DNA from: Candidatus Caldarchaeum sp.
GTDB lineage: Archaea; Thermoproteota; Nitrososphaeria_A; Caldarchaeales; Caldarchaeaceae
Assembly: GCA_038885755.1 (NCBI GenBank)
Contig: JAVZZH010000002.1
Coordinates: forward strand, 64,001-128,000
Length of the DNA stretch: 64,000 bases
Direction of reading: 5' to 3'
Below the pieces are notes generated by a model that searched no databases, was not told where the DNA came from, and saw nothing but the letters and a program-made list of their open reading frames with translations. Numbering within the stretch: position 1 is the first letter of the stretch; each line of letters starts with the position of its first letter. Positions 3,310 to 39,668 of the stretch are shown here, in pieces. Both the position numbers and the translations under genes were made by a program.

Positions 3310-3344
3310 GCGAAGACTGATAGGATGACCGAATAATCTCTATA
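3310..3344 (+). repeat. Dispersed repeat, copy 1 (GCGAAGAnnGATAGGATGACCGAATAATCTCTATA)
   Basis: 3319-3344 is identical to 39643-39668 (26 bp) and nearly identical to 10527-10552. Confidence 0.9.
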
Positions 3345-3366
3345 AATTTGTTTTAGACTATATGAG
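3336..3366 (+). promoter_or_regulatory. Putative operator ATCTCTATAAAT, 11-nt spacer, TATA-like box TATATGA for the moaD-aor-oah-had-dch operon
   Basis: Motif 3336-3347, TATA at 3359, ATG 30 nt later at 3389. Confidence 0.55.
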
Positions 3367-3388
3367 CCGGCGTCTGAAAATCGCGGAT

Positions 3389-3811
3389 ATGTGTGCCGAG
3401 GCTGTTGTAAAAATAATTTTCGTCGGCCCTTTACGGACTGCTTTCGGCAGCAGGGAGCTGACCCTCGCTGCAAGGGAGGGGGAGTCCGTCCGCCAGCTGC
3501 TCGTGAGGGTTGCGAGCGGGGCTGGCGGCAGGGGGGTTGAATATCTTTTGGATGAAAACCCAGAGCAGCTCGTCGTCTCTGTCGACGGAGAAGTGGTTAG
3601 AGACTTGGACAGGAAGCTTAGAGGCGGAGAAACCATCATATTGACTCCTGCTCTGTCAGGCGGCTCAAGCTACTCGGTGAGATGCTTAAACTGCTCGGCT
3701 AGAATACCTGTCCAGCAAGGGGTTTCGGAAGCGACCTGTAATAGCTGCGGCACAAGCTACACCATCACCTGGATATCTCCAACACAGCCGAAGATAAGAA
3801 GGGTTGTGTAA
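3389..3811 (+). CDS. MoaD/ThiS ubiquitin-like protein fused after Gly-Gly to a C4 zinc ribbon
   Basis: Beta-grasp pattern (VKIIFVGPLR..VSVDGE..IILTPALSGG) followed by CLNC..CNSC; start may be 3362 or 3389. Confidence 0.8.
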   Translation: MCAEAVVKIIFVGPLRTAFGSRELTLAAREGESVRQLLVRVASGAGGRGVEYLLDENPEQLVVSVDGEVVRDLDRKLRGGETIILTPALSGGSSYSVRCLNCSARIPVQQGVSEATCNSCGTSYTITWISPTQPKIRRVV

Positions 3812-3813
3812 AC

Positions 3814-5703
3814 ATGAAACCCGGCCAGCTCGTGGCATATGTAGACCTGAGCCGAAAAAAGACGTCTGTAGAGCCTGTGCCGGAGCATTGGAGAAAACAT
3901 TTCTTAGGCGGCAGGGGCGTTAACACATACCTTCTCAGCACAATGATTGACGAACGCACAGACCCCCTAGGGCCGGAGAACCCGCTGATAGTAGGGGTGG
4001 GCTTGCTCACAGGGATTTCGGCGCTCGGCTCCGGTAGATGCAATATCTCAGCCCGTTCTCCGCTGACGGGCGCATTGGGCGACAGCAACATAGGCGGTCT
4101 CTTCGCAGCGACAATGCGTAGGACAGGTATAGACTTCTTAGTTGTGTCAGGCAGGGCTGAGAAACCAGTCAGAATACATCTTCACGATAGGAAGGTCATG
4201 ATAGTTGACGGCAGAGACCTTTGGGGCTTAGACTCTTTCGAAGCACAGGAAGAGATTAGAAAGGCAGAGGGTGGAGCCGTCCAGTCTCTGGTCATAGGAC
4301 AGGCAGGCGAAAACCTTGTCAGGTATGCATGTGTGAGAACTGGGAGGAAAAGCTCAGCCGGCAGAACCGGGATGGGCGCGGTTATGGGAAGCAAGAACCT
4401 TAAAGCCATCTCAGCCGTGGGAGACAGGCCGATAGAATGGTATGACACGGCGGCACTTCAAAGGTTTTGCAGAGAATTGATCGATAAAATCATGTCGACG
4501 AAATGGGCTAGGGCTCAATCGGTGCACGGGACAGCCGCCATATTCAACTATACATATCATACGGGGCTGCTTAGGGTTAGAAACTTCCAGACACAGGCGC
4601 TCCTCGACGTCGGAACGCTTGAGCCTGAGAACATCGAGCCATACAAAACAGGGATGTCTGGATGCTCCGCATGCAGCATCAAATGCAGACATGTCTATGA
4701 ACTTGATGATGGGCCCTATCCTCACAAAGGTGAGGGTCCTGAGTACAGCCAGATAGGAAGCTTCGGAACAATGGTTGGAATAAACAGGATTGAAGCAGTG
4801 ATGAACGCCTCATACCTCTGCAACAAATATGGGCTAGACACGATAGAGGTAGGCAACATGATCGCGTGGATTATGGAGCTTTACGAGAAAAACCTCATAC
4901 CCAAAAACCTGCTCGGCGACTTGAAACCGGAGTGGGGTAGTGAGGAGGCGGTTTACAGACTTGTAGAAATGATAGCTCTGCGTCAGGGTTTGGGCGACAT
5001 CCTCGCCGAGGGGATGAAAACAGCTATAACAATACTCGGCCAGGAAACAAGTCGCTACGCCCTCCACATAAAAGGCATGGGAATACTTCTCTCCGACGAC
5101 AGGCCCGTACCCAGCTTCGCCCTCGGGCTTGCTACAGCCACAAGGGGGGCAGACCATTTAAGAAGCAGGCCAGCCGTGGACCTGTACGGGCTGCCTAAAG
5201 AGCTTCTCACCAGCCTCTACGAAGGTGAGGTATCAACAGATTACACAGAGTATGAGGGTAAGAGTAGGATGGTCTGGTGGCATGAGCTCCAGTATGCTGT
5301 GGGTGATTCGCTGGGGCTTTGCAGGTTTCAGATGAAGTTTATCTCAGTCCACGCGCCTTCGTATGATGAGTGGGTAGAGTTGATAAAATATGCGACTGGG
5401 ATGGAAACCTCTAAACATGAGTTGATGATGACGGGCGAAAGGATACTGGCTGTTGAGAGGATGCTGAACAACAGGCTTGGCTTCAGCAGGAAAGACGACA
5501 CACTTCCTGAACGCTACTACATTGAACCAACAGTGGCTGGGATGCCAAAAACCAGAGGTAGAAAGATAGATAGGCAGAAGTTCGAGCAAATGCTTGATGA
5601 ATACTACAGTCTCCATGGCTGGGATGAAAACGGTGTTCCCAAAAGAGAGACGCTTGAAAGGCTCGGCCTCGTCGAACACCCTATCTATTCACAAGGTGTG
5701 TGA
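3814..5703 (+). CDS. aor: AOR-family tungstopterin aldehyde:ferredoxin oxidoreductase
   Basis: FLGGRG, SPLTG, GRTGMGAVMGSKNLKAI, CSACSIKC, GLDTIE and RGADH motifs. Confidence 0.9.
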   Translation: MKPGQLVAYVDLSRKKTSVEPVPEHWRKHFLGGRGVNTYLLSTMIDERTDPLGPENPLIVGVGLLTGISALGSGRCNISARSPLTGALGDSNIGGLFAATMRRTGIDFLVVSGRAEKPVRIHLHDRKVMIVDGRDLWGLDSFEAQEEIRKAEGGAVQSLVIGQAGENLVRYACVRTGRKSSAGRTGMGAVMGSKNLKAISAVGDRPIEWYDTAALQRFCRELIDKIMSTKWARAQSVHGTAAIFNYTYHTGLLRVRNFQTQALLDVGTLEPENIEPYKTGMSGCSACSIKCRHVYELDDGPYPHKGEGPEYSQIGSFGTMVGINRIEAVMNASYLCNKYGLDTIEVGNMIAWIMELYEKNLIPKNLLGDLKPEWGSEEAVYRLVEMIALRQGLGDILAEGMKTAITILGQETSRYALHIKGMGILLSDDRPVPSFALGLATATRGADHLRSRPAVDLYGLPKELLTSLYEGEVSTDYTEYEGKSRMVWWHELQYAVGDSLGLCRFQMKFISVHAPSYDEWVELIKYATGMETSKHELMMTGERILAVERMLNNRLGFSRKDDTLPERYYIEPTVAGMPKTRGRKIDRQKFEQMLDEYYSLHGWDENGVPKRETLERLGLVEHPIYSQGV

Positions 5704-6644
5704 AAATGTCCGCAAAAGAGTATAAAGATATAGTCTACGACAGAAACTACCATACACATACTGCGCTTATTCAGATAAACAGGCCTGACGAATACAACTC
5801 CTACCTCCTCACTACTTTAAAGGAGATGATAGACGCTTTTGAAGACGCGATGTGGGATGATAACATACAGTTCATCGTTCTGTCAGGGGCTGGTGAGAAA
5901 GCCTTCTGCACGGGAGGCAACATCGGAGAGTACGCCGATATCTACAGCAAAAAGCCGTCAGACTGGTGGAAGTGGGGCGAGGTATACGGAAGGTTCCTAG
6001 ACATAATTCTCCACTGCGGCAAACCTGTCATCGCAAGAGTTAACGGCATGGTGGCTGGCGGCGGTTTCGAGTTTGTAGCCGCCTCCGACCTCGCCATAGC
6101 AGCACAGCATGCGAAGTTTCTCTCACCCGGGCCAAGGGTTGGAATGACCTCTATAGGCGGTCTTTCCCAGTGGCTTCCGCTCCACATAGGTCTGAAGAGA
6201 ACGGCTCAGCTCGTTATGACGAGCGAAGAGATAACGGCTCAAAAAGCTCTAGAATGGGGGATAGTGAACGACGTGGTGCCCCTCGAAAAGCTCGACGAAA
6301 GAGTTAAACAGCTTATAGACGTAATGCTCGACCTCTCCCCAACCAGCCTCCACTACTTCAAAGTACATCTAAACTGGTGGCGTGACCTTGTCTGGAAGCT
6401 CACATGGGAGCATGCTAAGGAATTCTTCTCACTGAACATCGGCGGCATCGAACCCGTGGAAGGGCTTCACGCCTTCAAAGAAAAGAGGAAGAGACGTTAC
6501 AGAGAAGTGAGAGACGACCTGGCTAAAGGCGTGGATCCAAGATACCCGCACGGCCCCTACATGCTTACGTGTAAAACATGCAACGCCAGATACCTGCCCC
6601 TCAACTCTGTTTACTGTCTAAAATGCGGGAGCAGGCTTGGGTGA
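5700..6644 (+). CDS. oah: 6-oxocyclohex-1-ene-1-carbonyl-CoA hydrolase (Oah/BamA/BzdY), ring-opening crotonase
   Basis: YNSY, KAFCTGGN.GEYA..Y and KPVIARVNGM.AGGG BamA-type signatures; context with had/dch/bcr; C-terminal CxxC..CxxC. Confidence 0.85.
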   Translation: MKMSAKEYKDIVYDRNYHTHTALIQINRPDEYNSYLLTTLKEMIDAFEDAMWDDNIQFIVLSGAGEKAFCTGGNIGEYADIYSKKPSDWWKWGEVYGRFLDIILHCGKPVIARVNGMVAGGGFEFVAASDLAIAAQHAKFLSPGPRVGMTSIGGLSQWLPLHIGLKRTAQLVMTSEEITAQKALEWGIVNDVVPLEKLDERVKQLIDVMLDLSPTSLHYFKVHLNWWRDLVWKLTWEHAKEFFSLNIGGIEPVEGLHAFKEKRKRRYREVRDDLAKGVDPRYPHGPYMLTCKTCNARYLPLNSVYCLKCGSRLG

Positions 6645-6650
6645 GAGCGT

Positions 6651-7673
6651 GTGAAAGCCGCGGTTTTCAGGGGGGCTGGGCAGTCTCTGGAAATAGCTGA
6701 CGTAGAGGCTCCGAAGATTGGTTATGGAGAGGTTTTGGTGAAGGTGTCGGCGTGCGGCATCTGCGCCACAGACCTACATTATCTCCATGGGGTACCTACT
6801 TTCAAGAAACCCCCTCTAATACTTGGACATGAGATCTCTGGAACAGTGGCGGAGGTCGGAGAGGGCGTCAGAGGGTTCAGTGTTGGAGAACAGGTGCTCG
6901 TTCCACCGGTTATCTCATGTGGGCTGTGTCTAAGATGTCTTGAAGGCCGCGACAACATATGCGAGAACATGCAGATGGTCGGCAACCATATCGACGGCGG
7001 GTTCGCCGAATACGTCAAAGCACCTGCCAGAAACCTTGTCCGTCTGCCTGAAAGCCTGCCTTTAAGAGAGAGCTCAATAATCTCCGACGCCGTCTCAACA
7101 CCCTACCATGCTGTGAAGAACAGAGGAGCTGTCCGGGGTGGAGAATGGGTGGCTGTCTTCGGATGCGGAGGGGTTGGGATAAACGCCGTCCAAATAGCAT
7201 CTGCGTTAGGGGGGTTGGTGATAGCAGTCGACATAGACGACCGCAAGCTCCAGCTCGCCAAACAGCTGGGCGCAGTCGAGACCATAAACTCGAGGGAGTC
7301 GGATCCGGTAAAAAATATTCAAAAAATAGTCGGAGGCGGGGTTGACGTCGCCTTCGAGGTTGTTGGCAAGCCGACGACGCTTGAACAGGCTTTAAGCACG
7401 GTAAGGCCTGGCGGAAAGCTTGTCGTAGTGGGCTACAGCGCCGAAACATGGAGCATGAGGGTCAGCAGGCTCATGTTCAGAGAAATAACCGTGGTCGGCT
7501 CGCTTGGATGCAGGCTAGCCGAATACCCTGCTCTTTTGAACATGGTGAAGACGGGGAAGATAAAACTTGAGCCGGTGATATCAGACAGGCTGAGGCTGGA
7601 GGAGGTTAATGAGGCTCTTAAACGGCTGGAGGAGGGAAAGACCGTCGGACGGCAGATAATCGTCGTCAGCTGA
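6651..7673 (+). CDS. had: Zn-dependent dehydrogenase, probable 6-hydroxycyclohex-1-ene-1-carbonyl-CoA dehydrogenase
   Basis: CATDLH, GHE, structural Zn cysteines, GCGGVG, GSLGC; located between oah and dch. Confidence 0.8.
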   Translation: MKAAVFRGAGQSLEIADVEAPKIGYGEVLVKVSACGICATDLHYLHGVPTFKKPPLILGHEISGTVAEVGEGVRGFSVGEQVLVPPVISCGLCLRCLEGRDNICENMQMVGNHIDGGFAEYVKAPARNLVRLPESLPLRESSIISDAVSTPYHAVKNRGAVRGGEWVAVFGCGGVGINAVQIASALGGLVIAVDIDDRKLQLAKQLGAVETINSRESDPVKNIQKIVGGGVDVAFEVVGKPTTLEQALSTVRPGGKLVVVGYSAETWSMRVSRLMFREITVVGSLGCRLAEYPALLNMVKTGKIKLEPVISDRLRLEEVNEALKRLEEGKTVGRQIIVVS

Positions 7674-7687
7674 GGGGCTGCATCGCC

Positions 7688-8464
7688 ATGACACAATCCT
7701 TCAAAACAATAACCATAGACTTTAAGGATAGAGTGTCGACAATCACCCTCACCAGCCCACCCCTCAACATCATCAACATCCAGATGATGGACGAGCTTTC
7801 CGAAGCCCTTGGAAAACTTGCAACAAACACTGAGCTGGCAGCACTAGTAGTCAAATCAGGTGTAGACGGCGTTTTCAGCGCCGGAGCAGACGTTAGAGAA
7901 CATCTTCCCGAGAAGGCTGAGCAGCTGATAAGAAAGTTCGAAAACCTCATTATGAAGCTGTTCAGCTTCCCAGCCCCAACCATATGCGTTGTTGATGGAA
8001 GATGCCTCGGCGGTGGAATGGAGCTGGCTATGGTGTGCGACTTTGTGGTCGCGTCGGAGGCAGCTGAGTTTGGACAGCCTGAGATTAAGGTCGGAGTCTT
8101 CCCCCCGGTCGCGGCCGCACTCTATCCAAGGCTGACAAGCCTCAAAAACGTACAAACACTGATACTGTTGGGAAAGACAGTAAAGGCGGCCGAGGCAAAA
8201 CAGCTGGGTCTTGTGAACGAGGTTGTTGAAAAACAGCGGCTTGAAGAGGTTCTGAAATCTTTCACGGACCAGCTGCTGGCAAACAGCAGCGCTGTTATGA
8301 GATATGCAAAGAGAGCGGTCCTCAGCTCGCTGGAGCTGTCTTTTGAACAAGCCTTGGCAAAAGCTTCCGACCTTTATCTGAACGAGTTGATGAAGACAGA
8401 AGACGCTGTAGAAGGTCTCAAAGCATTTCTCGAGAAACGGAGACCTCTCTGGAGACATAGATAA
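7688..8464 (+). CDS. dch: Crotonase, probable cyclohexa-1,5-diene-1-carbonyl-CoA hydratase
   Basis: PPLNI, FSAGADVREH, CLGGGMEL, GQPEIKVGVFPP, LYLNELM..EDAVEG typical of Dch/BzdW. Confidence 0.8.
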   Translation: MTQSFKTITIDFKDRVSTITLTSPPLNIINIQMMDELSEALGKLATNTELAALVVKSGVDGVFSAGADVREHLPEKAEQLIRKFENLIMKLFSFPAPTICVVDGRCLGGGMELAMVCDFVVASEAAEFGQPEIKVGVFPPVAAALYPRLTSLKNVQTLILLGKTVKAAEAKQLGLVNEVVEKQRLEEVLKSFTDQLLANSSAVMRYAKRAVLSSLELSFEQALAKASDLYLNELMKTEDAVEGLKAFLEKRRPLWRHR

Positions 8465-8567: not shown

Positions 8568-9476
8568 ATGAAGCAGAAAGTAACTACTTTGAAACAGGCT
8601 GTTGAGACGTTTATCCAAGACGGATGCTCACTGGCCCTATGTCTGAGCTTAGAGCACGCCATCCCCTTCGCCGCCGTCCATGAAATAATAAGGCAGGGAA
8701 AGCGCAACCTCACCCTGATAGGCCCGATCTCTGACGCCGCCTTCGACCAGTTGGTTGGCGCAGGATGTGCTTCGAAGGTGATGGCTGCATGGGTAGGCAA
8801 CGTATCCTACGGCATTGGCTACTGCTTCAGCAGAGCATATGAGAAGGGGCGTGTAAAAATGATAGACTACTCCAACCTCAGCATCGCTTCAGCCATCTTG
8901 GCCGCCGCCCTTGGAATCCCGTTTATACCGACGAAAACGTTGATAGGCTCAGACATTCTTGAAGGGCTTGTGGCCGAAGGCTTGGCCAAGCTGTCTGAAT
9001 GCCCCTTCACCGGTGAGGTGGTTGTTCTTCTCAAAGCCGTCAAGCCTGACGTCGCGGTGGTCCACGTCCAGAGATGCGACGATAAAGGATATGCGCAAAT
9101 GTGGGGGAACCTCGGGATAGTTAGGGAGGCATGTCAGGCAGCCGATAAAGTGATGGTGACAACTGAGGAGGTGGTCGACCATGAAACCATAACCCTCGAC
9201 CCGAACTCCGTCATATGCCCGCCGTACAAAGTAGCTGCAGTCTGTCAGGTTAGATACGGAGCCCATCCATCCCCTCTGGCAGGATATTACAACAGAGACC
9301 ACAACTTTTTCAGAGAATACTACGAGATGAGCAAGACGCCGGAAGGTTTTAGGAAATGGCTGGAGAAATGGGTTCTGTCTGTCGGGAGCAGGGATGAATA
9401 CCTGAAGAATGTCGAGCTTGACAGAATCAGGGTTGCTAAACCTTTAGAGGCTGGGGCGAGGCTGTATGGCTACTGA
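8568..9476 (+). CDS. Family I CoA transferase, subunit A (glutaconate CoA-transferase-like)
   Basis: IPFAAVHEIIRQG, GIPFIPT..GSD, PDVAVVHVQRCD..G, GAHPS. Confidence 0.85.
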   Translation: MKQKVTTLKQAVETFIQDGCSLALCLSLEHAIPFAAVHEIIRQGKRNLTLIGPISDAAFDQLVGAGCASKVMAAWVGNVSYGIGYCFSRAYEKGRVKMIDYSNLSIASAILAAALGIPFIPTKTLIGSDILEGLVAEGLAKLSECPFTGEVVVLLKAVKPDVAVVHVQRCDDKGYAQMWGNLGIVREACQAADKVMVTTEEVVDHETITLDPNSVICPPYKVAAVCQVRYGAHPSPLAGYYNRDHNFFREYYEMSKTPEGFRKWLEKWVLSVGSRDEYLKNVELDRIRVAKPLEAGARLYGY

Positions 9477-10206
9477 CAGCTTCACAGCACGTGAGATGAT
9501 GGTGGTCTCGGCAGCCCGCATGATCAAGAACCGGGACATCGTTTTCGTCGGCATGCGTCTACCCTTGCTTGCCTTCAGTCTAGCCAAAAACCTATGGGCC
9601 GCTGAAGCAGTGGCACTGTATGAGGCTGGTATAATGCGGGAAAAACATTGCGGCGAATATGTTCACACAATGTGCGACCTACCTCTCCAGACGCAGGCTT
9701 CATGGCTTACGGGGCTTGTAGAAGTAATGTCCTGCCTTCAACGGGGTGAGGTGGATGTTGGAATAATAGGCGGAGCTCAGATAGACGTATGTGGAAACAT
9801 CAACAGCACCTTAGTGAAGACGGCAAGCGGTGTCAGAAGGTTGCCTGGAAGCGGAGGCGCATGCGACATCGCTGTTTTCGTAAAAAAACTAATCGTGATG
9901 ATGCCGCTGGAGTCTAGGAGACTGGCCTCGAAGGTCGACTACATAACATCCCCCTCTGTCTGCGGTAGAAATGGACGGAAACAGTTCAAGGACATCTACT
10001 TGGTCACGGACAAAACGGTGCTTTCGGTGGATGGCTCAAAATTTACAGTCGTCGCGCGTTATCGTGGGGTTAGCATAGAAGACATCATGGACCATGTGGG
10101 CGGACTAGTTACAGAACTGGCTGAAGCCCCTATTCAGCAGCCACCTACAGAAGAAGAGCTTAAAACGTTAAGAGCATTGGACAGAGAAGGATTTTGGACA
10201 CGTTAA
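9466..10206 (+). CDS. Family I CoA transferase, subunit B
   Basis: VFVGM.LP, catalytic-type YEAG, GGAQID..GNINST, RLPGSGGACD. Confidence 0.85.
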   Translation: MATDSFTAREMMVVSAARMIKNRDIVFVGMRLPLLAFSLAKNLWAAEAVALYEAGIMREKHCGEYVHTMCDLPLQTQASWLTGLVEVMSCLQRGEVDVGIIGGAQIDVCGNINSTLVKTASGVRRLPGSGGACDIAVFVKKLIVMMPLESRRLASKVDYITSPSVCGRNGRKQFKDIYLVTDKTVLSVDGSKFTVVARYRGVSIEDIMDHVGGLVTELAEAPIQQPPTEEELKTLRALDREGFWTR

Positions 10207-10502
10207 TCAAATAGCGGCAGACGGGCAGCTGGCAACCATCGCGTCATCCCTTAAAGAGAAGGTTCAGAGCTTCCAGCGGAGAAGTGGAGAGGGAGGTGGG
10301 GATAGCGGAGGTTGAGCTCATGGGCAGGAGAGGGGGACTGACACTGAGCTTTGGAGAGAAAGAGAGAGAAACAGCATTCTAACTGAAAGATAGGACAAAG
10401 AGGCTGGAAAAACATAGCAGCTGGATAACGCTAATACACAACACGTCAATAAAGTTAACAGTAACGACGTGTTCAACGAACATTGGACGACCCGTCCAGC
10501 GT

Positions 10503-12623: not shown

Positions 12624-12624
12624 T

Positions 12625-32280: not shown

Positions 32281-32928
32281 ATGTTGGAGGCAGTTTTAGA
32301 GCTCCGCATCCCCTACTACTGTTTCATGGCCGCCTCCAAGGATATTGACGGTGAAATATCCGTAGACGCGATACTTTACAGGGATGGATGTGTTCAGCAT
32401 CTTCTGAGTATAAGGTGTAGAAAGGTTTTAGATAGAAAATCAGCCATACTCAACGTTCTTAGGAAATATCCTGCCAGCTTCTTCCATCTCACGAAGATCA
32501 GTAGCAAAAGCTTCATAGCGGTCGCTGAAACCCATGCCTGTATGCTGTGCTCCAGCGCAATCGAGAACGGTTGTTTCATAGAGAGGGAGCAAAGCGATCG
32601 AAACAATTCGTTCATGACATGGCGTGTCCTCTCACCTTCCCGTAAAAACCTCAACAACCTTGTGAGAGACCTTAAGACCTTCGGAGCGAATCCTAGCATA
32701 CTTTACGTTGGTAAGCCGCGGCAGGGTAAGAACACGCTGACAGCTAAACAGGCACGTGCTCTCGAGACGGCTGCGAAACACGGCTTTTTTGAAACTCCCA
32801 GACGTGTGTCAACCATTTCGTTGGCAGAGTTATTGAAAGTATCGCCGTCAACGTTCTCGGAAACGCTGAGAAGAGCCCTCAACAAAATAGTCAACAACTA
32901 CATCAGCACAACACACGCCGTCGTATAG
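32281..32928 (+). CDS. Bacterio-opsin-activator-type (HTH_10) transcription regulator
   Basis: LTAKQ..AL..A...GFFETPRR....LA..L.VSPSTFSETLRRA. Confidence 0.85.
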   Translation: MLEAVLELRIPYYCFMAASKDIDGEISVDAILYRDGCVQHLLSIRCRKVLDRKSAILNVLRKYPASFFHLTKISSKSFIAVAETHACMLCSSAIENGCFIEREQSDRNNSFMTWRVLSPSRKNLNNLVRDLKTFGANPSILYVGKPRQGKNTLTAKQARALETAAKHGFFETPRRVSTISLAELLKVSPSTFSETLRRALNKIVNNYISTTHAVV

Positions 32929-33189
32929 CAACGCCTTCAAAACGTCGACCGGGTTCTTGTAGCGGCCCGGTGCAGCCATCCAAACCGGCTAAAACCCTAA
33001 AAACTCCAGACAAAAGAGGCAACAGAGAATAAGGTTAGTGTTCCTCCATCTGTTCTCGGTAGCGGATGTCGTAGAGATTACAGGAACATGGACACAGATG
33101 TCTAGGACATGGTATAAAGCTAAGGAAAACTCGCGGGAAAAAGGGAGGACAGGAAACGAGTTTAACAGACTATGGAGATGGCGGATGTG

Positions 33190-33573
33190 ATGACAGCCGA
33201 CAACACGGCAGACGACAACACTTTCCTACGTGGATTCTTTGATAGTGAAGGATGTGCAAGAAAGGAGAGATGGTTGTCGACAACGCCGACCTAAGATTGA
33301 TTAGATACGTCAAACAACTACTGTCTTTCCTAGGGATAGAGACGAACGGGCCACAGCCTAAAACGAAACATGGAACACCTTTCGTAGACCCGAGGAACGG
33401 AAAAACATACCCATGCAAAGAAGGATGTCTACCGTCTCTACGTCCCCGCTGACCATCGTCATCAATACTACAGATACGTTAGCTTAACAATCAGAAGAAA
33501 ACAGCGGAGGCTGGAGCAATACCCTACCAGAAGAGGACTGCTGACGCCACCAGCCAAACACCCCCCTCACTAA
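33190..33573 (+). pseudogene. Frameshifted free-standing LAGLIDADG homing endonuclease relic
   Basis: FLRGFFDSEG at ~33223, then after a frameshift NADLRLIRYVKQLLSFLGI, then after another frameshift VYRLYV..YYRYVSLTIRRKQRRLE with stop at 33573. Confidence 0.75.
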
Positions 33574-33590
33574 TCATGCTATTCATATTG

Positions 33591-33664
33591 TGGACCGGGA
33601 GGGATTTGAACCCTCGACCTACCGAGTGCAAGTCGGTCGTTCTTCCAGGCTGAACTACCGGCCC
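33591..33664 (-). tRNA. tRNA-Ala (UGC), no intron, CCA not encoded
   Basis: Cloverleaf GGGCCGG..ACCGA-CTTGCAC-TCGGT..TTCAAAT..CCGGTCCA with the G3:U70 Ala determinant. Confidence 0.95.
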
Positions 33665-33720
33665 TCTCGAAAACCATTATCTGTGTCGTATATTTAGGTT
33701 CTCGCGTGTTGACGATGCTT

Positions 33721-34059
33721 TCAACCGTGTTGTAGAACCTCCACCTCCGCTCCCTCGTCGTAGCCCTTAACCTCCTCGGGTACGACAGGCAGTCCGTTGG
33801 CGTTGGTGAGGGTTGAGAGGAGACCCGACCCAGTAAAAGGCTCCACGAGGACTCCGTCCTGCGTCCACGCAAGCCTTACACGCATGAAAAGCCTCGCCGC
33901 TGTATGGTTGACAACACGACTCGTGAGCTTGCCTCGGACCCTGCAGGGGCCGGGGCTGTTGTGGCCGTACTTAACGAAGAGTTGGAAACCGGTCAAGGCG
34001 GGTACGGGGTATCCTGAAAGCATGAAGACAGGCTTCCCGTCAACGACCCCGGCTACCAC
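33721..34059 (-). pseudogene. Degraded C-terminal fragment of moeA
   Basis: VDGKPVFMLSGYP..GFQLFVK..TGSGLLSTLT.ANGL.VVPEEV.GYDEG.EVEV aligns with the end of 35409-36674, with small deletions. Confidence 0.85.
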
Positions 34060-34311
34060 ATCCTGACTCCTCCCCGGGTCGACTGGGCTTTACACAGCAC
34101 GCACATCAGGTGTCTCAATAACCTTGGTTTTCACCGTAAGCATGCTTGCATGGACAGCAGCCTGTCTGACCACGGTCGTCATTTTATTCAACCGGCAGGA
34201 CTTCTAATACTCCTTACGGCCGGCCAGCGTATGGCGGCCACTGAGACCCTAGCAAGCACGTGGTTCGTAATCCAAAAATGATTTAAGGAGGTTTTGCCAA
34301 ATGTTTAGTCA

Positions 34312-35124
34312 GTGACAAACGACGGCATATCCACCGTTGTCAGAGGCGTCAGATACGATGGAGAAGTCGTCGAGGACCACGTCGCTTTAGAGTTCCCTGT
34401 AAACATATACATCAACGACAAACATTTTGTCACGGTTTTTGCAACTCCTCACGAGCTTAGAGAAATGGTCATAGGCCATCTCCTCGGACACGGCATCGTC
34501 GACAGGCTGGAGCAGATCGTGGACTTGGCTGTAGACGGCCTCGACATACTAACCTACGTCAATGTCGATGAACGTGAGCTGGGTAGAAGGCTCGAAAAAC
34601 ATAAAGAGTTCAAGCTCATCCTCACATCATGCGGCTCTGTTGAAGACTATATCAGGGCTTTCGACAACCTCCACAAGCCGAGGGTTTATTCAGATTTCAG
34701 GATTTCGTCGGAACGGCTTCGCTCCATCGTGACAGAGTTTGGAAGACTGTCCAAGCACACGGTCTCGGTCCACTCAGCCGCGGTCTACTCGGACGTTGAG
34801 GGAAAAATCCTCGGCCTTTCAGAGGACGTCAGCAGACACGTCGCCGTTGACAAGATAGTAGGTAAGATGGTGTTGAAGAACGTTGACTTCTCAAAATGTG
34901 TTCTCCTGACTACAGGCAGGCAGGCCTCCGACATGGTTTTGAGGGCTGCACGCGTGGGAATACCGGTGACCGCCTCCCTCAGGGGGCCTATTTTCTCCGG
35001 GCTGTACGCGGCTTTGAAAAGCGGGATCACGATGGTTAGCATGGTTAGGGGAAAAGGTCTGACGATATACTCCTACCCAGAGAGAATAATTCATAATAGT
35101 GTGGAGGAGCAGCTGGTTAGCTAG
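34312..35124 (+). CDS. fdhD: FdhD/NarQ-family molybdopterin sulfurtransferase
   Basis: ATPHELRE..IG, TSCG, VHSAA, EDVSRHVAVDK, TTGR, GIP. Confidence 0.85.
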   Translation: MTNDGISTVVRGVRYDGEVVEDHVALEFPVNIYINDKHFVTVFATPHELREMVIGHLLGHGIVDRLEQIVDLAVDGLDILTYVNVDERELGRRLEKHKEFKLILTSCGSVEDYIRAFDNLHKPRVYSDFRISSERLRSIVTEFGRLSKHTVSVHSAAVYSDVEGKILGLSEDVSRHVAVDKIVGKMVLKNVDFSKCVLLTTGRQASDMVLRAARVGIPVTASLRGPIFSGLYAALKSGITMVSMVRGKGLTIYSYPERIIHNSVEEQLVS

Positions 35125-35408: not shown

Positions 35409-36674
35409 ATGAGCAGTAGGAAAATGTCCGGCTTCCCCACTCTAGCCAGCGTGGAGGAGGCTTTTTCAATACTTGTTAACAAGCTCGCGGTAAAAAACCC
35501 AGCCGTAGAGTATGTCCCGCTGGAAGAATGTCTGGGCAGGTTCTGTGGACAGGATGTTTTTTCACCAGCCAACGTTCCGCCGTTCGACAGGAGCGCCGTC
35601 GACGGCTACGCTGTCAAAGCATCGGACACCTTCGGAGCCTCCCCCACAAACCCTGTGGCGATGAAGCTGGTCGGCGTATCACACGCAGGGTTGAGGAAGG
35701 ATCTGACTCCTAAAATATCGTCGGGGCAGGCTGTCGAAATATACACTGGGGCGCCGGTTCCTGAAGGGGCTGACGCTGTCGTCATGGCTGAGTACTGTAA
35801 AAAATCCGGAGAGGGATACGTGGAAGTTTTCCGCCAAGCCCATCCATTCCAGAACATTTCACGGACGGGTGAGGATTTCAGGATGAGTGAGCTGGTGGTC
35901 GGCAGAGGCACAAGATTAAAGTCTTGGCACATAGGAGCTTTAGCATCCCTTAACATCGTAAAAATCCCCGTCTACCAAAGGCTCCGCGTCTCAGTCCTCA
36001 GCACGGGGAGCGAGCTTGTAGAACCAGGCCAGACACCTCGGGAAGACCAGATAATAAACAGCTCCAAACCCATGCTCAAGTCGCTGATTGTAGAGAACGG
36101 ATGCGTCCCCGTAGACCTAGGCACGGTCGAGGACGACGTCCAGCTTGTAGCGTCGAAGATAGCCGAAGGTGTGAACGTCTCCGACATCGTAATAGTCACC
36201 GGAGGCACAAGCATAGGAGAAAGAGACATAGTTCCCGACGCTGTGAACAAGGCTGGGAAGCCGGGAGTCATATTCCACGGGGTCAGGATAAGGCCTGCCA
36301 AGCCTACCGGAGCTGGAATAGTCGACGGAAAACCCGTCTTCATGCTCTCAGGGTTCCCTGTCTCGGCGTTGATCGGCTTCCAGCTGTTCGTGAAACCAGT
36401 CATAGACATGATGTATTGTCGCAGAAGCTCCGGAGCCTGTTTGGTTAGGGGTAGGCTGACCAGACGTGTGGCAAACCATACTGCGTCGAGGCTTTTCGTC
36501 CGCGTCAGGGTTGAAAAAACAGAGAGCGGGGTTGTCGTGGAGCCGTTGATGCTAACGGGCTCGGGTCTTCTTTCAACGCTGACGAAGGCGAACGGGCTGC
36601 TGGTCGTGCCCGAGGAAGTGGAAGGATACGACGAAGGCGAGGAAGTGGAGGTGCAGCTTCTAGAACATGACTGA
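35409..36674 (+). CDS. moeA: Molybdopterin molybdo/tungstotransferase MoeA
   Basis: PPFDRSAVDGYAV, IYTGAPVPEGADAVVM.E, STGSEL, TGGTS.G..D, RPAKP. Confidence 0.95.
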   Translation: MSSRKMSGFPTLASVEEAFSILVNKLAVKNPAVEYVPLEECLGRFCGQDVFSPANVPPFDRSAVDGYAVKASDTFGASPTNPVAMKLVGVSHAGLRKDLTPKISSGQAVEIYTGAPVPEGADAVVMAEYCKKSGEGYVEVFRQAHPFQNISRTGEDFRMSELVVGRGTRLKSWHIGALASLNIVKIPVYQRLRVSVLSTGSELVEPGQTPREDQIINSSKPMLKSLIVENGCVPVDLGTVEDDVQLVASKIAEGVNVSDIVIVTGGTSIGERDIVPDAVNKAGKPGVIFHGVRIRPAKPTGAGIVDGKPVFMLSGFPVSALIGFQLFVKPVIDMMYCRRSSGACLVRGRLTRRVANHTASRLFVRVRVEKTESGVVVEPLMLTGSGLLSTLTKANGLLVVPEEVEGYDEGEEVEVQLLEHD

Positions 36675-36690: not shown

Positions 36691-38652
36691 GTGGCGACCG
36701 TCTTCCACAACCTAGTCAGCGTCGAAGAAGCTTTGGAGATGATAGATGCCGCGCTAGGCGGGGTCAGGCCTCTTGGTGTAGAGAGGGTGAAAGTGAGCGA
36801 GGCTTTAGGCCGAACGCTTGCCGAAGACGTTGTTGCCGCGGCTGCTGCACCGCCTTTCGACAGGTCTACCGTAGACGGCTACGCTGTAGTAGCTTCAGAC
36901 ACATACGCAGCAACCGAGGAGAAGCCTATCACGCTGGAGGTTGTTGGGAAAGCCGAGGTCGGCCGCGTATACGAAGGCTTTTTAGAGAAAGGAAAATGCG
37001 CCGAGATATCGACTGGCGCAGCCATACCGCGGGGAGCCAACGCTGTGGTGATGGTCGAGTTCACCAAGAAGACCTCAGAAAACACCGTGCAAGTCTTCAA
37101 GCCAGTCTCTCCGAACGAGAATATAGCTCAAGCCGGGTCAGACATCTCCGTCGGCGACATAATCCTCAGAAAAGGCAGCCTGATAACTCCCCGGGAGATA
37201 GCTGTGTTAACTTCTGTGGGGCTTGAGGAAGTTCCTGTCTACAGAAAGGCTAGGGTCGCGGTCTTCTCCACCGGAAACGAGGTCGTTGAGGTCGGCAAAC
37301 CTCTTGACCTAGGAAAAATCTACGACGTCAACGGCCCAACGTTGACCGCCATGCTCGCCGAGGCCGGAGCCGATGCAGATTTTCTCGGAATAATCCCCGA
37401 CGACCACGACTTGATGCTGAAGCGTATAAGCCAAGCTCTCGAGGCCGGCTACGACATGATCGTCACTTCAGGAAGTACTTCAGCAGGCTTCGGAGACATG
37501 ATATACAAAGTTTTCAGAGAGTTGAGCGGCGGCAAAGTCCTCGCTCACGGGCTGAAGGTCAGACCCGGCAAACCAACCGCCGTCGCCGTGGCTGGAGGAA
37601 AGCTGCTGATAGGGCTGCCGGGATTCCCTCTGTCGGCGATGATGGTTTTCATGAAGCTCGTCAAACCAGTCATCCAGCGCATGTGCGGTACAAACACCTC
37701 GGCGTCGAAAACAGTGAGGGCCAAAATCCCATTCAAGGTAGACGCTGGAAAAGGCAAGCTGGAGATGTTGCCCGTCCAGATAGTGTCGACAGGAAGCGAG
37801 AACGTTGCATATCCCTTGCTCGGGCATTCAGGGTCTACGTATGTTTTATCGGTCGCCGACGGCGTGGTAGAGGTGGCTGAGAACAAGGAGTTTCTCGACG
37901 AAGGTGAGGAAGTTGAAGTCAGCCTTCTCTCAGACAGGATAAAACCCGCCGAGCTCTTCATAATCGGAAGCCACTGCCCTGGAATCGACATACTTTTAGA
38001 GGAGGCTGGTTTACTTGAGACAAAAGTTGTGAACGTTGGCTCGGTTGCTGGATGGTATGCGGTTAAGCGTGGAGAAGCCGACTTGGCTGGAACGCATTTG
38101 CTGGATGAAAGGACGGGCGAATACAACCGTCACATGCTGGAAAGGCTTAGCCTGAAAGACAAGGCTGTTCTTGTCAGAGGGTACGCGAGGAGGATTGGCT
38201 TCGCGACAAAGAAAGGAAACCCGCTCAGAATCAAGTCCTTCGAAGACCTTCTGAGAAAAGACATAATGTTTGTCAACAGGGTTAGAGGCTCTGGGATAAG
38301 AGCTCTCCTCGACATAAGGTTCGCCGAGCTCGGCGTGCAAGAACCTTTAAAACAGGTCAAGGGATACGACTACGAGGTTAGAACGCATACAGGTGTTGCG
38401 GCAGCAGTAGCTCAGGGAAGAGCCGACGTGGGAATAACGCTCGAAGCCGTAGCCAAACACTATGGATTAGACTTCATCCCAATAGGTGATGAAATGTTTG
38501 ATTTTGCTGTCTCCAAACAGAGGATGGACAAGAAACAGGTTAAAAAATTTATAGAAACACTGTCCTCAAAAAAGTTCGGCGAAAAGCTGCAGAAAACACT
38601 GCCGGGATACCGTGTAGTAAATGAGACGGGAAAAGTCCTCGAAATCAAATGA
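36691..38652 (+). CDS. moeA: MoeA fused to a C-terminal PBP (molybdate/tungstate-binding) domain
   Basis: MoeA motifs plus IIGSHCPG, GEADLAGTHLLD, FVNR..GSG.R, TH..VAAAV. Confidence 0.95.
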   Translation: MATVFHNLVSVEEALEMIDAALGGVRPLGVERVKVSEALGRTLAEDVVAAAAAPPFDRSTVDGYAVVASDTYAATEEKPITLEVVGKAEVGRVYEGFLEKGKCAEISTGAAIPRGANAVVMVEFTKKTSENTVQVFKPVSPNENIAQAGSDISVGDIILRKGSLITPREIAVLTSVGLEEVPVYRKARVAVFSTGNEVVEVGKPLDLGKIYDVNGPTLTAMLAEAGADADFLGIIPDDHDLMLKRISQALEAGYDMIVTSGSTSAGFGDMIYKVFRELSGGKVLAHGLKVRPGKPTAVAVAGGKLLIGLPGFPLSAMMVFMKLVKPVIQRMCGTNTSASKTVRAKIPFKVDAGKGKLEMLPVQIVSTGSENVAYPLLGHSGSTYVLSVADGVVEVAENKEFLDEGEEVEVSLLSDRIKPAELFIIGSHCPGIDILLEEAGLLETKVVNVGSVAGWYAVKRGEADLAGTHLLDERTGEYNRHMLERLSLKDKAVLVRGYARRIGFATKKGNPLRIKSFEDLLRKDIMFVNRVRGSGIRALLDIRFAELGVQEPLKQVKGYDYEVRTHTGVAAAVAQGRADVGITLEAVAKHYGLDFIPIGDEMFDFAVSKQRMDKKQVKKFIETLSSKKFGEKLQKTLPGYRVVNETGKVLEIK

Positions 38653-38828
38653 AAAACATACAGGCATTTTCCTCTGCCACCGATCCATCGTAAAAGCTAA
38701 ATCAACTATGAACGTCTCAGCCGCGATGCATCATGTTACCTAATTGCGGCAACACACTTTAACATGTCGCCAAACTTTAGGTAAAGCATAAGATATTAGG
38801 AGGGTGTTTTGAAACAGTTGGTAGGCCG

Positions 38829-39620
38829 TTGCATGGATTAAAGCCTGACATAATCAGCCCGGAAAGACTGTTGGACAACCTTGATGATTACATCCTGATC
38901 GATGTGAGAAGGTTTATCGAATACAAGACAGGGCATATCCCGAACGCGCTCCCCTGCTCCTTCACACATTTCATAAAGATATGGGGTGTGTCTCTCCTAC
39001 CAGCTGACAGCGAAGAACTTGTCCGAAACCTTTCCAGGCTGGGTGTCGACATGGACAGGACGATAGTTGTTTATGACAATTTCTACGGAAGGCATGCGGC
39101 TCGAGCTGTCTACACGCTCGAGCTTCTCGGCTTCAGCAAGCTTGCGCTGCTCGACAGAACTTTCGAAGAATACGTGGCTGGTGGATACCCTGTGACAGAC
39201 GAGAAGCCGGTCTACAAGCCGTCGGAGCTTCCGAGACTCCAATACGATGAAAGCCGTCTCCTGACAAGAGAGAAGATCGCAAGCCTCATCCAAGAGTGGG
39301 ATGGCTCGGCTGCGATAGTGGATTCCCGGGACGCAGCCGACTACGGGTTTGGCCACATACCTCACGCGATAAACATTCCATGGCACAACATCTACGCTTC
39401 CAAGGGATTGTTTAACATCGAGGCTGTCAGAAAAGCTGTGGAAGCCAACGGCCTCTCAGGGTTTAAAACCGTCATCTGCTACTGCGAGGAGGGGACGAGC
39501 TCTTCTCTCGCGATGTACGCTTTCAGGCACGCGGGCCTGCTCAGTACGCATACATACCTAGCCTCATACCCCGACTGGGTCGGCACACTCCAAACCCCGG
39601 TCGAGAAACAAACCCGGTAA
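38829..39620 (+). CDS. Two-domain rhodanese/thiosulfate sulfurtransferase
   Basis: IDVR..EY..GHIPNA, VDSR..GHIPHA, active-site ICYCEEG. Confidence 0.85.
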   Translation: MHGLKPDIISPERLLDNLDDYILIDVRRFIEYKTGHIPNALPCSFTHFIKIWGVSLLPADSEELVRNLSRLGVDMDRTIVVYDNFYGRHAARAVYTLELLGFSKLALLDRTFEEYVAGGYPVTDEKPVYKPSELPRLQYDESRLLTREKIASLIQEWDGSAAIVDSRDAADYGFGHIPHAINIPWHNIYASKGLFNIEAVRKAVEANGLSGFKTVICYCEEGTSSSLAMYAFRHAGLLSTHTYLASYPDWVGTLQTPVEKQTR

Positions 39621-39633
39621 ACGCCTTCAGCCA

Positions 39634-39668
39634 GCGAAGATGGATAGGATGACCGAATAATCTCTATA
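39634..39668 (+). repeat. Dispersed repeat, copy 3 (right border of the accessory block)
   Basis: 39634-39661 is identical to 10518-10545; 39643-39668 is identical to 3319-3344. Confidence 0.9.

Follow-up and report, generated by a model that had tools for sequence, protein, structure and literature searches.

A conserved gene island of Candidatus Caldarchaeum predicted to encode oxygen-independent degradation of phenylacetate through benzoyl-CoA

In Thauera and Aromatoleum, phenylacetaldehyde is broken down by way of phenylacetate, phenylacetyl-coenzyme A (phenylacetyl-CoA), phenylglyoxylate, benzoyl-CoA and a dienoyl-CoA to 3-hydroxypimeloyl-CoA. To our knowledge, Ferroglobus is essentially the only cultured archaeon with proven anaerobic cleavage of the benzene ring, and the remaining archaeal cases are predictions from metagenome-assembled genomes (MAGs). 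According to passages in two papers, the cultured Ferroglobus placidus (Archaeoglobi) degrades benzoate and aromatic amino acids anaerobically and uses a class I benzoyl-CoA reductase (BCR) (PMC6472368, PMC10581246). Other passages predict the Bcr-Dch-Had-Oah route in Thermoplasmata and Bathyarchaeota MAGs (PMC6472368) and in Hermodarchaeota (as cited in PMC11291895), and a phenylacetate route for the anaerobic methanotrophic archaea (ANME; PMC10581246). Here, we analyzed a stretch of 64,000 nucleotides from a Candidatus Caldarchaeum sp. genome (bases 64001-128000 of contig JAVZZH010000002.1, assembly GCA_038885755.1), hereafter the window, and describe a block of ~30 genes at 3362-39620, hereafter the island, which joins relatives of PadBCD, the phenylacetyl-CoA:acceptor oxidoreductase, to relatives of the reductase Bcr and of the ring-opening enzymes Dch, Had and Oah. 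Unless stated otherwise, coordinates are window positions, position 1 being the first letter of the 64-kb stretch.

Gene families were assigned from an open reading frame (ORF) listing and from Pfam and NCBIfam profile scans of the window proteins, and every pathway step below is deduced from homology and gene context. All the families named in an initial annotation of this DNA were found in one block, and the bounds proposed there (3310-39668) bracket the genes exactly; a metallo-beta-lactamase (MBL)-fold gene, a ThiS-like gene and a tRNA-Ala gene (33590-33664) come in addition. We consider it likely, with a probability of about 70%, that the island encodes an oxygen-independent conversion of phenylacetate to benzoyl-CoA, followed by reductive dearomatization and ring cleavage. 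Phenylacetaldehyde would probably be degraded by the same pathway, with an open-chain C7 dicarboxyl-CoA as the end product. The features of the island, with the scores of the profiles matched, are as follows.

3362-3811, + strand: ThiS/MoaD-like small protein with a C-terminal CxxC...CxxC zinc ribbon (Pfam ThiS 28.5 bits; no NCBIfam match)
3814-5703, + strand: tungsten-type aldehyde:ferredoxin oxidoreductase (AOR) (AFOR_N 237.5 bits, AFOR_C 384.8 bits)
5700-6644, + strand: Oah-like candidate, a MenB/BadI/Oah-type crotonase with a C-terminal zinc ribbon (TIGR03200 157 bits)
6651-7673, + strand: Had-like dehydrogenase candidate (best model TIGR03201, 248 bits)
7688-8464, + strand: Dch-like dienoyl-CoA hydratase candidate (best model TIGR03189, 178 bits)
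8568-9476, + strand: family-I CoA-transferase subunit A (Pfam CoA_trans 73.6 bits; weak pcaI/scoA match; kept in relatives)
9466-10206, + strand: family-I CoA-transferase subunit B (Pfam CoA_trans 63.4 bits; weak pcaJ/scoB match)
10657-11826, - strand: BcrC-like subunit (Pfam HGD-D; TIGR02263 268 bits)
11823-12689, - strand: BcrD-like ATPase subunit (Pfam BcrAD_BadFG 154.9 bits; TIGR02261 160.6 bits)
12625-13440, - strand: BcrA-like ATPase subunit, short form of 271 amino acids (aa) (Pfam BcrAD_BadFG 218.5 bits; TIGR02259 193 bits)
13443-14726, - strand: BcrB-like catalytic subunit (TIGR02260 308 bits)
14782-15702, - strand: MBL-fold metallo-hydrolase (Pfam Lactamase_B 114 bits)
15871-16761, + strand: 2-oxoacid:ferredoxin oxidoreductase (OFOR), fused gamma and delta subunits (Pfam POR and two 4Fe-4S motifs; TIGR02175 and TIGR02179 above cut-off)
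16758-18014, + strand: OFOR alpha subunit (PorA_Arch 367 bits)
18007-18918, + strand: OFOR beta subunit (Pfam TPP_enzyme_C; PorB 250 bits)
19151-19927, - strand: PadD-like membrane anchor (Pfam NrfD and DmsC, both weak)
19924-20562, - strand: PadC-like four-cluster iron-sulfur (FeS) subunit (Pfam Fer4_11)
20559-23282, - strand: PadB-like molybdopterin subunit of phenylacetyl-CoA:acceptor oxidoreductase (55% identity to Thauera PadB)
23331-24404, - strand: PhoU-domain protein, candidate regulator (Pfam PhoU twice)
24581-25915, + strand: PaaK-like phenylacetate-CoA ligase (TIGR02155 417 bits)
26194-27675, + strand: substrate-binding protein of a Liv-type ATP-binding cassette (ABC) transporter (Pfam Peripla_BP_6 131.7 bits)
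27723-28589, + strand: LivH-like ABC permease (Pfam BPD_transp_2)
28508-29593, + strand: LivM-like ABC permease (Pfam BPD_transp_2)
29595-30296, - strand: LivF-like ABC ATPase (Pfam ABC_tran)
30274-30960, - strand: LivG-like ABC ATPase (Pfam ABC_tran and BCA_ABC_TP_C)
31026-32123, - strand: second PhoU-domain candidate regulator, a paralogue of 23331-24404 (Pfam PhoU twice)
32281-32928, + strand: HTH_10 (bacterio-opsin-activator-type) transcription regulator (Pfam HTH_10 61 bits)
33590-33664, - strand: tRNA-Ala(TGC) (ARAGORN; Rfam tRNA 68.5 bits)
34312-35124, + strand: FdhD-type sulfurtransferase for the maturation of Mo/W-bis(pyranopterin guanine dinucleotide) (bisPGD) enzymes (Pfam FdhD-NarQ 185 bits)
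35409-36674, + strand: MoeA, metal insertion into molybdopterin (Pfam MoeA_N, MoCF_biosynth and MoeA_C)
36691-38652, + strand: MoeA fused to a domain of the periplasmic-binding-protein-like (PBP-like), oxyanion-binding type (Pfam MoeA domains; PBP_like 202 bits)
38829-39620, + strand: tandem rhodanese sulfurtransferase (Pfam Rhodanese twice)

The PadB-like protein is 55% identical, over 904 of its 907 residues, to the molybdenum enzyme encoded at locus L101 of Thauera aminoaromatica S2. The neighbors of this enzyme pass the NCBIfam equivalog cut-offs for BcrB (821 bits), BcrC (811), Dch (481), Oah (724), Had (650), PadG (766), PadH (738), PadI (839) and PaaK (689), so L101 is a canonical pad-bcr region and its molybdenum enzyme is PadB. 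NCBIfam holds no PadB model, and the Thauera and window proteins both give only a weak PhsA match (~167 bits). When Thauera PadB was searched against the whole genome, the island gene scored 1051 bits and the next match 67, and among solved structures no other molybdenum enzyme exceeded 105 bits (ArrA) with the window protein. The family is well conserved, with a mean column identity of 74% over 12 diverse members. In a FastTree phylogeny of 79 PadB sequences, the window protein, two from Caldarchaeum, two from other Nitrososphaerota MAGs and one from a MAG labeled "bacterium" formed a fully supported clade of six, which adjoins Rokubacteria, Methylomirabilota and Tectomicrobia, with 58 Pseudomonadota including Thauera on the other side. 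Identity, PDB scores and tree thus bear out the assignment of this gene as padB, which groups with the canonical Thauera enzyme and not with other members of the DMSO reductase family. The PadC-like subunit is 54% identical to Thauera PadC over 214 residues, and the PadD-like anchor 37% identical over 108 residues to the product of the gene that follows padC in Thauera. The FeS motif of the Fe4S4 domain begins at residue 5 of the PadB-like protein, where the family alignment also starts, which leaves no room for a signal peptide. The subunit appears to lack a signal for twin-arginine translocation (Tat) and would face the cytoplasm, as a CoA-ester substrate requires, and we infer that this orientation is a defining feature.

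The bcrB-A-D-C genes lie next to each other on the - strand (14726-10657) and encode two HGD-D subunits and two different BcrAD_BadFG ATPases. Among NCBIfam models, the BcrB-like protein scored 308 bits with TIGR02260 versus 185 with HadB, and the BcrC-like protein 268 bits with TIGR02263 versus 196 with HadC. As a calibration, a HadB-like protein of Proteus and an HgdA-like protein of Fusobacterium reached 503 and 439 bits on the HadB model and 105 and 97 on the BcrB model. Against the PDB, the BcrB-like protein matched MbdO (240 bits), HadB (144) and BzdO (109), and the BcrC-like protein MbdN (238), HadC (154) and BzdN (101); MbdO and MbdN, the best solved relatives of the two, are subunits of a 3-methylbenzoyl-CoA reductase, and a literature search for a paper on the MbdO structure found none. 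A quick IQ-TREE phylogeny of 42 BcrB rows was rooted on the C-type paralogues and held one canonical reductase, three dehydratase-type rows and no Bzd or Bad rows. It joined the window protein, Thauera BcrB and uncultured bacterial and archaeal homologues in a clade of 32 rows (Shimodaira-Hasegawa-like approximate likelihood-ratio test, SH-aLRT, 99), apart from the HadB/HgdA-like clade (97), with a branch length of 1.39 between them. The dehydratase loci that we inspected contain a single activase gene, whereas the window, like the reductases, has two distinct ATPase genes. Hidden Markov model scores, PDB matches and the BcrB tree, which has few characterized rows, favor a position of BcrB and BcrC on the reductase side of the branch to the 2-hydroxyacyl-CoA dehydratases, in agreement with the initial reading of these genes. 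The BcrB-like protein is 44-50% identical to homologues labeled as coming from Thermoplasmata, Thorarchaeota and Heimdallarchaeota MAGs.

At the residue level, with the cluster-ligand and active-site residues of BzdO taken from a passage in PMC11971306, Cys99, Cys133 and Cys370 of the BcrB-like protein align with Cys95, Cys128 (one column off, beside a gap) and Cys380 of BzdO. The three ligands also occur in HadB and so do not separate reductases from dehydratases. A residue-level test to tell the two apart was rejected, as MbdO, HadB and the window protein all have the Cys ligands, a Tyr following the first of them and the Glu of a "PE" motif; the position of BzdO His131 is Tyr in the window protein and Phe in MbdO. 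The BcrD-like ORF contains exactly two Cys, in the contexts CAAG and STVC, and its true start is probably the Met at residue 23.

For three adjacent genes (5700-8464), NCBIfam ranks oah, had and dch first, respectively, with all three scores under the cut-off. At E<=1e-5, Thauera Had matches no other gene of the genome than the Had-like one, and Thauera Dch and Thauera Oah both find their best genome-wide matches in the corresponding island genes. In all, when 10 Thauera pad and bcr proteins were searched against the genome, seven (PadB, PadG, Oah, Had, Dch, BcrC and BcrB) had their best match in the island. The three top NCBIfam models of the Oah-like protein are Oah, BadI and MenB, and by these matches it can be placed in the MenB/BadI/Oah subgroup of C-C-cleaving crotonases. 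Its homologues at 60-75% identity come from uncultured archaea and bacteria (60-72% for Thermoplasmata and Bathyarchaeia MAGs), and some are annotated with the zinc-ribbon family PF13240. Several lie on contigs of 35107, 21339, 1704986, 400380, 38715, 29732 and 26185 bases, which are the sizes of contigs with BcrB or PadB matches; this points indirectly to a module whose genes stay together in other lineages too. A CxxC...CxxC zinc-ribbon tail also ends the ThiS-like protein, to which the Oah-like crotonase is unrelated.

Among the enzymes of the upper pathway, the PaaK-like ligase is 42.5% identical to Thauera PadJ/PaaK. The AOR matched Pyrococcus furiosus AOR (1aor, 340 bits) ahead of FOR (285) and of BamB of the class II BCR (167.5), without reaching the E. 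coli-type equivalog NF007354 (201 of 868 bits), and these scores assign it to the AOR family, nearest to the characterized AORs and not to BamB or FOR. The alpha subunit of the OFOR scored 367 bits with PorA_Arch (cut-off 550) and 281 with PadG (cut-off 700), and the beta subunit 250 with PorB (405) and 132 with PadI (700). The alpha subunit is 53% identical to a host paralogue on contig C1 and 35% to Thauera PadG. The island-type OFOR is kept beside bcr and pad in four related genomes (G003, G005, G015 and G016) and at two further loci (L032 and L033), and it could be a non-orthologous replacement of PadEFGHI that would carry out the phenylglyoxylate step and supply reduced ferredoxin to the reductase. 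The MBL gene likewise adjoins bcr or the OFOR in these four genomes and two loci. Its protein has only generic PDB matches, and its nearest Atlas cluster, automatically named hydroxyacylglutathione hydrolase, provides a lead only. Hydrolysis of phenylglyoxylyl-CoA is described as a recognized pathway step in a passage of PMC9765128, and from its position and the weak glyoxalase-II-like lead we speculate that the MBL-fold hydrolase could be the phenylglyoxylyl-CoA thioesterase.

The island lies 67-104 kb into a contig of 256 kb, in a genome of 1.33 Mb on 10 contigs with 0.34% contamination. The same window codes for the DNA polymerase II large subunit (DP2), a KaiC-like ATPase, hisD, Trm5/TYW2 and DUF2070 (Pfam). 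Host DP2 is 96% and 94% identical to that of two Candidatus Caldarchaeum sp. MAGs, and 10 of the 15 DP2 loci found carry the name Caldarchaeum, so the placement as an Aigarchaeota-like archaeon of the TACK group (Thaumarchaeota, Aigarchaeota, Crenarchaeota and Korarchaeota), suggested from the sequence at the outset, holds, with Caldarchaeum as the host. The guanine-plus-cytosine (GC) content of the island is 51.5% against a genome mean of 54.7%, with only 2.8% of 493 windows of equal length as low, and its tetranucleotide distance from the genome is equaled by only 5.4% of 166 windows. Such values, in the outer 3-5% for this genome, fit an acquired region and hint at foreign origin without proving it. 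The island looks like a mosaic, the closest outside kin of pad and bcr being other Nitrososphaerota MAGs and bacteria of the Rokubacteria/Methylomirabilota type, and the oxidoreductase being of archaeal stock.

Related genomes carry the same block. The BcrB-like gene was found in 5 of the 61 genomes of the order searched, the host's own included; apart from the host, 4 of 17 genomes in its family carry it, and none of 43 in the three other families does (0/19, 0/4 and 0/20). From the ThiS-like gene to the HTH_10 gene, G005 is colinear throughout in identical order, with protein identities of 72-93%, and G003, G015 and G016 follow the order of the window as far as their contigs reach, G016 with a local inversion of MBL and OFOR. 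The ThiS-like gene is kept upstream of AOR in G003, G005 and G016. Colinearity in four related genomes shows that the block is not an assembly chimera and that the clustering is not due to chance. The island is a genuine catabolic block of the Caldarchaeum genome and a real but patchy trait of Caldarchaeaceae. In a phylum-wide sample, a PadB-like gene at E <= 1e-100 was present in 9 of 401 genomes, including the host's own. Sixteen further genomes of the host's family contribute six of these carriers, of which one reaches only 37% identity and one is partial; the two PadB-like genes from outside the order show 49% identity. When species-representative genomes were scanned, 80 PadB loci came up; a paaK-like gene lies within 10 kb of 39 of them, a bcrB-like gene of 18 and an OFOR-alpha-like gene of 16. 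The bcrBADC-MBL-OFOR-pad core of the island recurs at L032 and L033 with 57-75% identity. L033 (DAIDAO010000009.1), in a MAG labeled "bacterium", has a padB-bcrBADC-OFOR-MBL block that is sister to the block of a Nitrososphaerales MAG in the PadB, BcrB and OFOR trees, and this bin may in fact be archaeal.

The island proteins are more conserved between genomes than DP2: BcrB identities to the window are 93% (G005), 83% (G015) and 81% (G016), against 77%, 59% and 61% for DP2. Protein families evolve at different rates, and we therefore take nothing from this comparison about transfer within the family. A gap of 1.4 kb (32929-34311), which holds tRNA-Ala and no convincing ORF, parts the catabolic genes from the cofactor genes in the window, while in G003 and G005 the fdhD-moeA-moeA-rhodanese genes lie directly upstream of ThiS-AOR instead. 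An FKBP gene is found before ThiS in the window and beyond HTH_10 in G005. The differing places of the cofactor block and the FKBP gene indicate that the island has been rearranged relative to its flanks between close relatives.

Put together, these genes suggest the following pathway. The Liv-type ABC system would import the aromatic acid, and the AOR would oxidize phenylacetaldehyde to phenylacetate with reduction of ferredoxin. The PaaK-like ligase would then form phenylacetyl-CoA, and the membrane-bound PadBCD would oxidize its alpha carbon, with transfer of four electrons to the quinone pool and phenylglyoxylyl-CoA as the product. Hydrolysis of this thioester, perhaps by the MBL-fold hydrolase, is the weakest link of the chain. 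The Por-type OFOR would convert phenylglyoxylate to benzoyl-CoA and CO2, and the ferredoxin reduced in this step may drive the ATP-dependent reduction of benzoyl-CoA to a cyclic dienoyl-CoA by BcrBADC. Hydration, oxidation and ring opening would follow through the Dch-like hydratase, the Had-like dehydrogenase and the Oah/BadI/MenB-type hydrolase, and beta-oxidation enzymes coded elsewhere in the genome would complete the degradation. FdhD, the two MoeA proteins, the rhodanese and the ThiS-like protein may serve the maturation of the Mo/W cofactors of PadB and AOR, the ThiS-like protein probably as a sulfur carrier for the pterin cofactor.

A number of observations weigh against this pathway, beginning with the profile scores, as 10 proteins (BcrA to BcrD, Dch, Had, Oah, PaaK, PadG and PadI) fall under the NCBIfam equivalog cut-off of the proposed function. 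The Bcr subunits reach 308 of 487 bits (BcrB), 268 of 421 (BcrC), 161 of 313 (BcrD) and 193 of 578 (BcrA), and the BcrA-like protein (271 aa) covers only model positions 216-431 of 432, without the N-terminal half of the Thauera-type subunit. In the BcrB tree, the approximately unbiased (AU) test does not reject a tree with the dehydratase outgroup beside the window's clade (p = 0.48); the window's clade could therefore be the deepest branch of the Bcr-like clade, which makes it weak to carry the function over from Thauera by phylogeny alone. The Had-like protein (248 bits, cut-off 339; ~37% identity to Thauera Had) and the Dch-like protein (178 bits, cut-off 292.5; 35% identity to Thauera Dch) likewise fall short. 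The Oah-like protein, the weakest of the ring-opening assignments, scores 157 of 464 bits, and only its residues 20-199 match, to model positions 37-216 of 360. Its identity to Thauera Oah is 37% across 180 residues and the remainder shows no match, its best PDB match is MenB (133 bits), and its named homologues are mostly enoyl-CoA hydratases, with one BadI, one MenB and no Oah. The gene is thus better described as a divergent crotonase of the MenB/BadI/Oah type that matches in its N-terminal half only than as the oah of the initial annotation. The PaaK-like protein scores 417 of 646 bits with TIGR02155 and 399 of 700 with the haloarchaeal PaaK model NF041878 (next model, 212), and a second PaaK-like gene (contig C1, 122527-123798; 44% identity) outscores the island copy with Thauera PaaK as query, at 363 versus 322 bits. 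A tree of 17 rows joins the OFOR alpha subunit to the host paralogue (support 100), apart from the pad-linked bacterial OFORs, and the genome has no PadH homologue (best match 27% over 184 residues). Orthology of the 2-oxoacid oxidoreductase with PadEFGHI, as first assumed, gives way here to an archaeal Por-type enzyme in a genome without PadH.

The genome is only 86.5% complete, and the window has no stand-alone ferredoxin, a regular-expression search for 2x[4Fe-4S] motifs having found only the OFOR delta domain and PadC; the thiolases and the 3-hydroxyacyl-CoA dehydrogenase that could serve beta-oxidation sit at other places in the genome. To call the module self-contained is therefore too strong. 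Nor does it cover entry from phenylalanine, as indolepyruvate oxidoreductase (IOR) was not found in the genome, decarboxylase and aminotransferase not having been searched for. Thus, of the dearomatizing module proposed initially, the gene content was largely right, and its self-sufficiency, the phenylalanine entry and the identity of the enzymes were overstated. The Caldarchaeum lineage is usually described as made up of aerobic or microaerobic chemoorganotrophs or lithotrophs, and this genome encodes a heme-copper oxidase subunit I, so the host can probably respire O2, while no NarG-type nitrate reductase was found in the genome. In favor of the pathway, besides the beta-oxidation genes, no aerobic PaaA epoxidase was found in the genome. 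The only further Mo-bisPGD enzyme of the genome is Ttr-like (TtrA 475 and TtrB 212 bits, both under cut-off) and could be a respiratory reductase for sulfur compounds that serves as an anaerobic electron sink. Operation without O2 therefore stays a deduction, which the oxidase speaks against and for which the Ttr-like reductase is the only anaerobic candidate found; the host looks like a facultative organism. The Ttr-like operon (C6:392-8287, L124) codes for the TtrB-like subunit, a 369-aa protein without family match and the TtrA-like subunit of 1148 aa, and before it stands a gene for a 689-aa protein with a GXGXG domain like that of formylmethanofuran dehydrogenase subunit C.

Could the same architecture act on another substrate, such as 4-hydroxyphenylacetate, indoleacetate or a methyl- or hydroxybenzoate, with the Bcr-like enzyme as an aryl-CoA reductase of other specificity? 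The best solved relative of BcrB and BcrC is indeed a 3-methylbenzoyl-CoA and not a benzoyl-CoA reductase, the equivalog cut-offs are all missed (417 versus 646 bits for the PaaK-like ligase), and the window's Bcr proteins form a clade apart from that of Thauera, perhaps a basal one. We nevertheless regard this as unlikely, given the 55% identity of PadB to the Thauera enzyme in a family with a mean column identity of 74%, the phenylacetate and benzoyl-CoA versions as best models for the ligase, dch, had and oah, and the absence of hydroxylase, dehydroxylase and decarboxylase genes for substituted rings from the Pfam scans of the window. It is very unlikely that the products of the bcr-like genes are instead an ATP-activated 2-hydroxyacyl-CoA dehydratase, or some other ketyl-radical enzyme of amino-acid fermentation, so that no dearomatization would take place. 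The Bcr models and MbdO/MbdN clearly outscore their dehydratase counterparts, a pattern that true dehydratase-type proteins reverse, and the tree puts the window protein on the reductase side (branch 1.39, SH-aLRT 99). The two distinct ATPase genes differ from the single activase of the dehydratase loci inspected, and the bcr genes adjoin dch-, had- and oah-like genes and padBCD. These points outweigh the Pfam family HGD-D, the 185 and 196 bits that the HadB and HadC models still give, the name "2-hydroxyacyl-CoA dehydratase family protein" that NCBI attaches to the closest homologue, and the room that the AU test leaves for a basal position.

Misassembly or misbinning of bacterial DNA into an archaeal MAG could in principle account for the block, its low GC content (51.5% versus 54.7%, with 2.8% of windows as low), its tetranucleotide distance (matched by 5.4%) and the bacterial origin of the closest PadB relatives outside the phylum. 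This explanation is scarcely credible for an island that lies inside a 256-kb contig between archaeal flanks (DP2, Trm5/TYW2 and DUF2070), that recurs with the same flanking FKBP and cofactor genes in independently assembled genomes of the Caldarchaeum family, and whose OFOR groups with the host's own paralogue in a genome with 0.34% contamination. The preferred reading is therefore that of an archaeal pathway from phenylacetate through benzoyl-CoA to ring cleavage.

For this oxygen-independent phenylacetate pathway, we tentatively propose a more specific form, possible though rather doubtful as a whole, in which a mosaic thermophilic pathway closes its own electron loop. The ferredoxin-type OFOR would replace the NADH-linked enzyme of five subunits, so that the oxidation of one phenylglyoxylate might yield exactly the two low-potential electrons that the BCR needs; the ring might be opened by an unrecognized clade of zinc-ribbon hydrolases that searches with BamA or Oah miss, and the MBL-fold protein would be the phenylglyoxylyl-CoA thioesterase. 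If so, the module would be widespread in uncultured Nitrososphaerota, Thermoplasmata and Bathyarchaeia, and surveys would under-count anaerobic aromatic degradation by archaea.

Other features of the window touch the island less directly. Regulation may fall to the two PhoU-domain proteins and the HTH_10 protein, and the N-terminus of the PhoU-domain protein at 23331-24404, inspected by eye, appears AbrB/SpoVT-like. ORFs at 10318-10653 and 2677-3243 were rejected as genes, being low-complexity sequence without a Pfam or NCBIfam match, and an Rfam scan of the window returned two tRNAs and nothing else. Upstream of the island, 119-1474 codes for a flavoprotein resembling sulfide:quinone oxidoreductase and flavocytochrome c (Pyr_redox_2 and FCSD_central). 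Just outside the island, 43031-45955 codes for a luciferase-like monooxygenase and an acyl-CoA dehydrogenase. The best NCBIfam models of the latter are acryloyl-CoA reductase, non-decarboxylating glutaryl-CoA dehydrogenase and cyclohexanecarboxyl-CoA dehydrogenase, all far under cut-off, and it could have a role in the lower pathway. A 376-aa protein (60421-61551) combines DUF3782 and PD-(D/E)XK nuclease domains, and its N-terminal part has many weak Pfam matches of the coiled-coil type.

In the literature searched, we found no paper that links Aigarchaeota, Caldarchaeales or Caldarchaeum to benzoyl-CoA or padBCD, and the early impression that the trait is not known for this lineage accords with this. 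The strings "benzoyl", "benzoate" and "phenylacet" are absent from the main text of two papers on Aigarchaeota and Caldarchaeales genomics (PMC6053391 and PMC10547907), although the supplements of these papers could hold such calls, and in the excerpts of PMC12806544 bcrABCD appears in a figure legend only. The pathway as such is textbook knowledge, and archaeal Bcr predictions are already in print. New are the lineage, the joining of padBCD, at high identity, to a bcr-type reductase in one archaeal locus, and three variant parts: the Por-type OFOR, the short BcrA and the zinc-ribbon hydrolase. With genes for uptake, activation, alpha-oxidation, decarboxylation, dearomatization, ring opening and cofactor supply, the island is matched in completeness and linkage by few archaeal gene sets so far. 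If our reading is true, it would offer as targets a thermostable class I reductase, a ferredoxin-type phenylglyoxylate oxidoreductase and a clade of ring hydrolases that surveys based on BamA do not detect.

Compared with the pad (padBCD, padEFGHI and padJ) and bcr clusters of Thauera aromatica and T. aminoaromatica, the island is alike in gene families, pathway logic and the linkage of pad to bcr, with identities of 55% (PadB), 54% (PadC), 42.5% (PaaK), 37% (BcrB), 34% (BcrC), 37.5% (Had) and 35% (Dch). It differs in its archaeal host, in the order of the bcr genes (B-A-D-C instead of C-B-A-D) and in a BcrA without the N-terminal half. In place of PadEFGHI with its NADH-linked PadH, it has a three-gene OFOR of the archaeal ferredoxin type, and its counterpart of the 377-aa Oah is a 314-aa protein with a match in the N-terminal half and a zinc ribbon. 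The block adds AOR, the MBL hydrolase, the CoA-transferase, the Liv transporter and cofactor genes, and has no ferredoxin gene. The 2-hydroxyacyl-CoA dehydratases (HadBC/HadI and HgdAB/HgdC) share with the window proteins the HGD-D fold, an ATPase of the BcrAD_BadFG type and the three-Cys [4Fe-4S] site, but differ in the reversed score pattern, the separate clade and, at the loci inspected, the one activase gene where the window has two ATPase genes.

The reductase of Ferroglobus is of the Azoarcus (Bzd) type, and the Bcr proteins of the window are nearer to the Thauera/Mbd type than to Bzd (only 109 bits with BzdO), a comparison with Ferroglobus made by reductase type. Ferroglobus is a euryarchaeon, whereas the host of the island is a TACK archaeon; as far as the passages on Ferroglobus go, the two have in common a thermophilic archaeal host, an ATP-dependent class I BCR and the Dch-Had-Oah route. 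The predictions from archaeal MAGs were drawn from genomes only, as ours is. The island differs from them in belonging to Caldarchaeales, a hot-spring group of TACK archaea, and in joining bcr to high-identity padBCD, paaK, AOR, transporter and cofactor genes in one conserved block.

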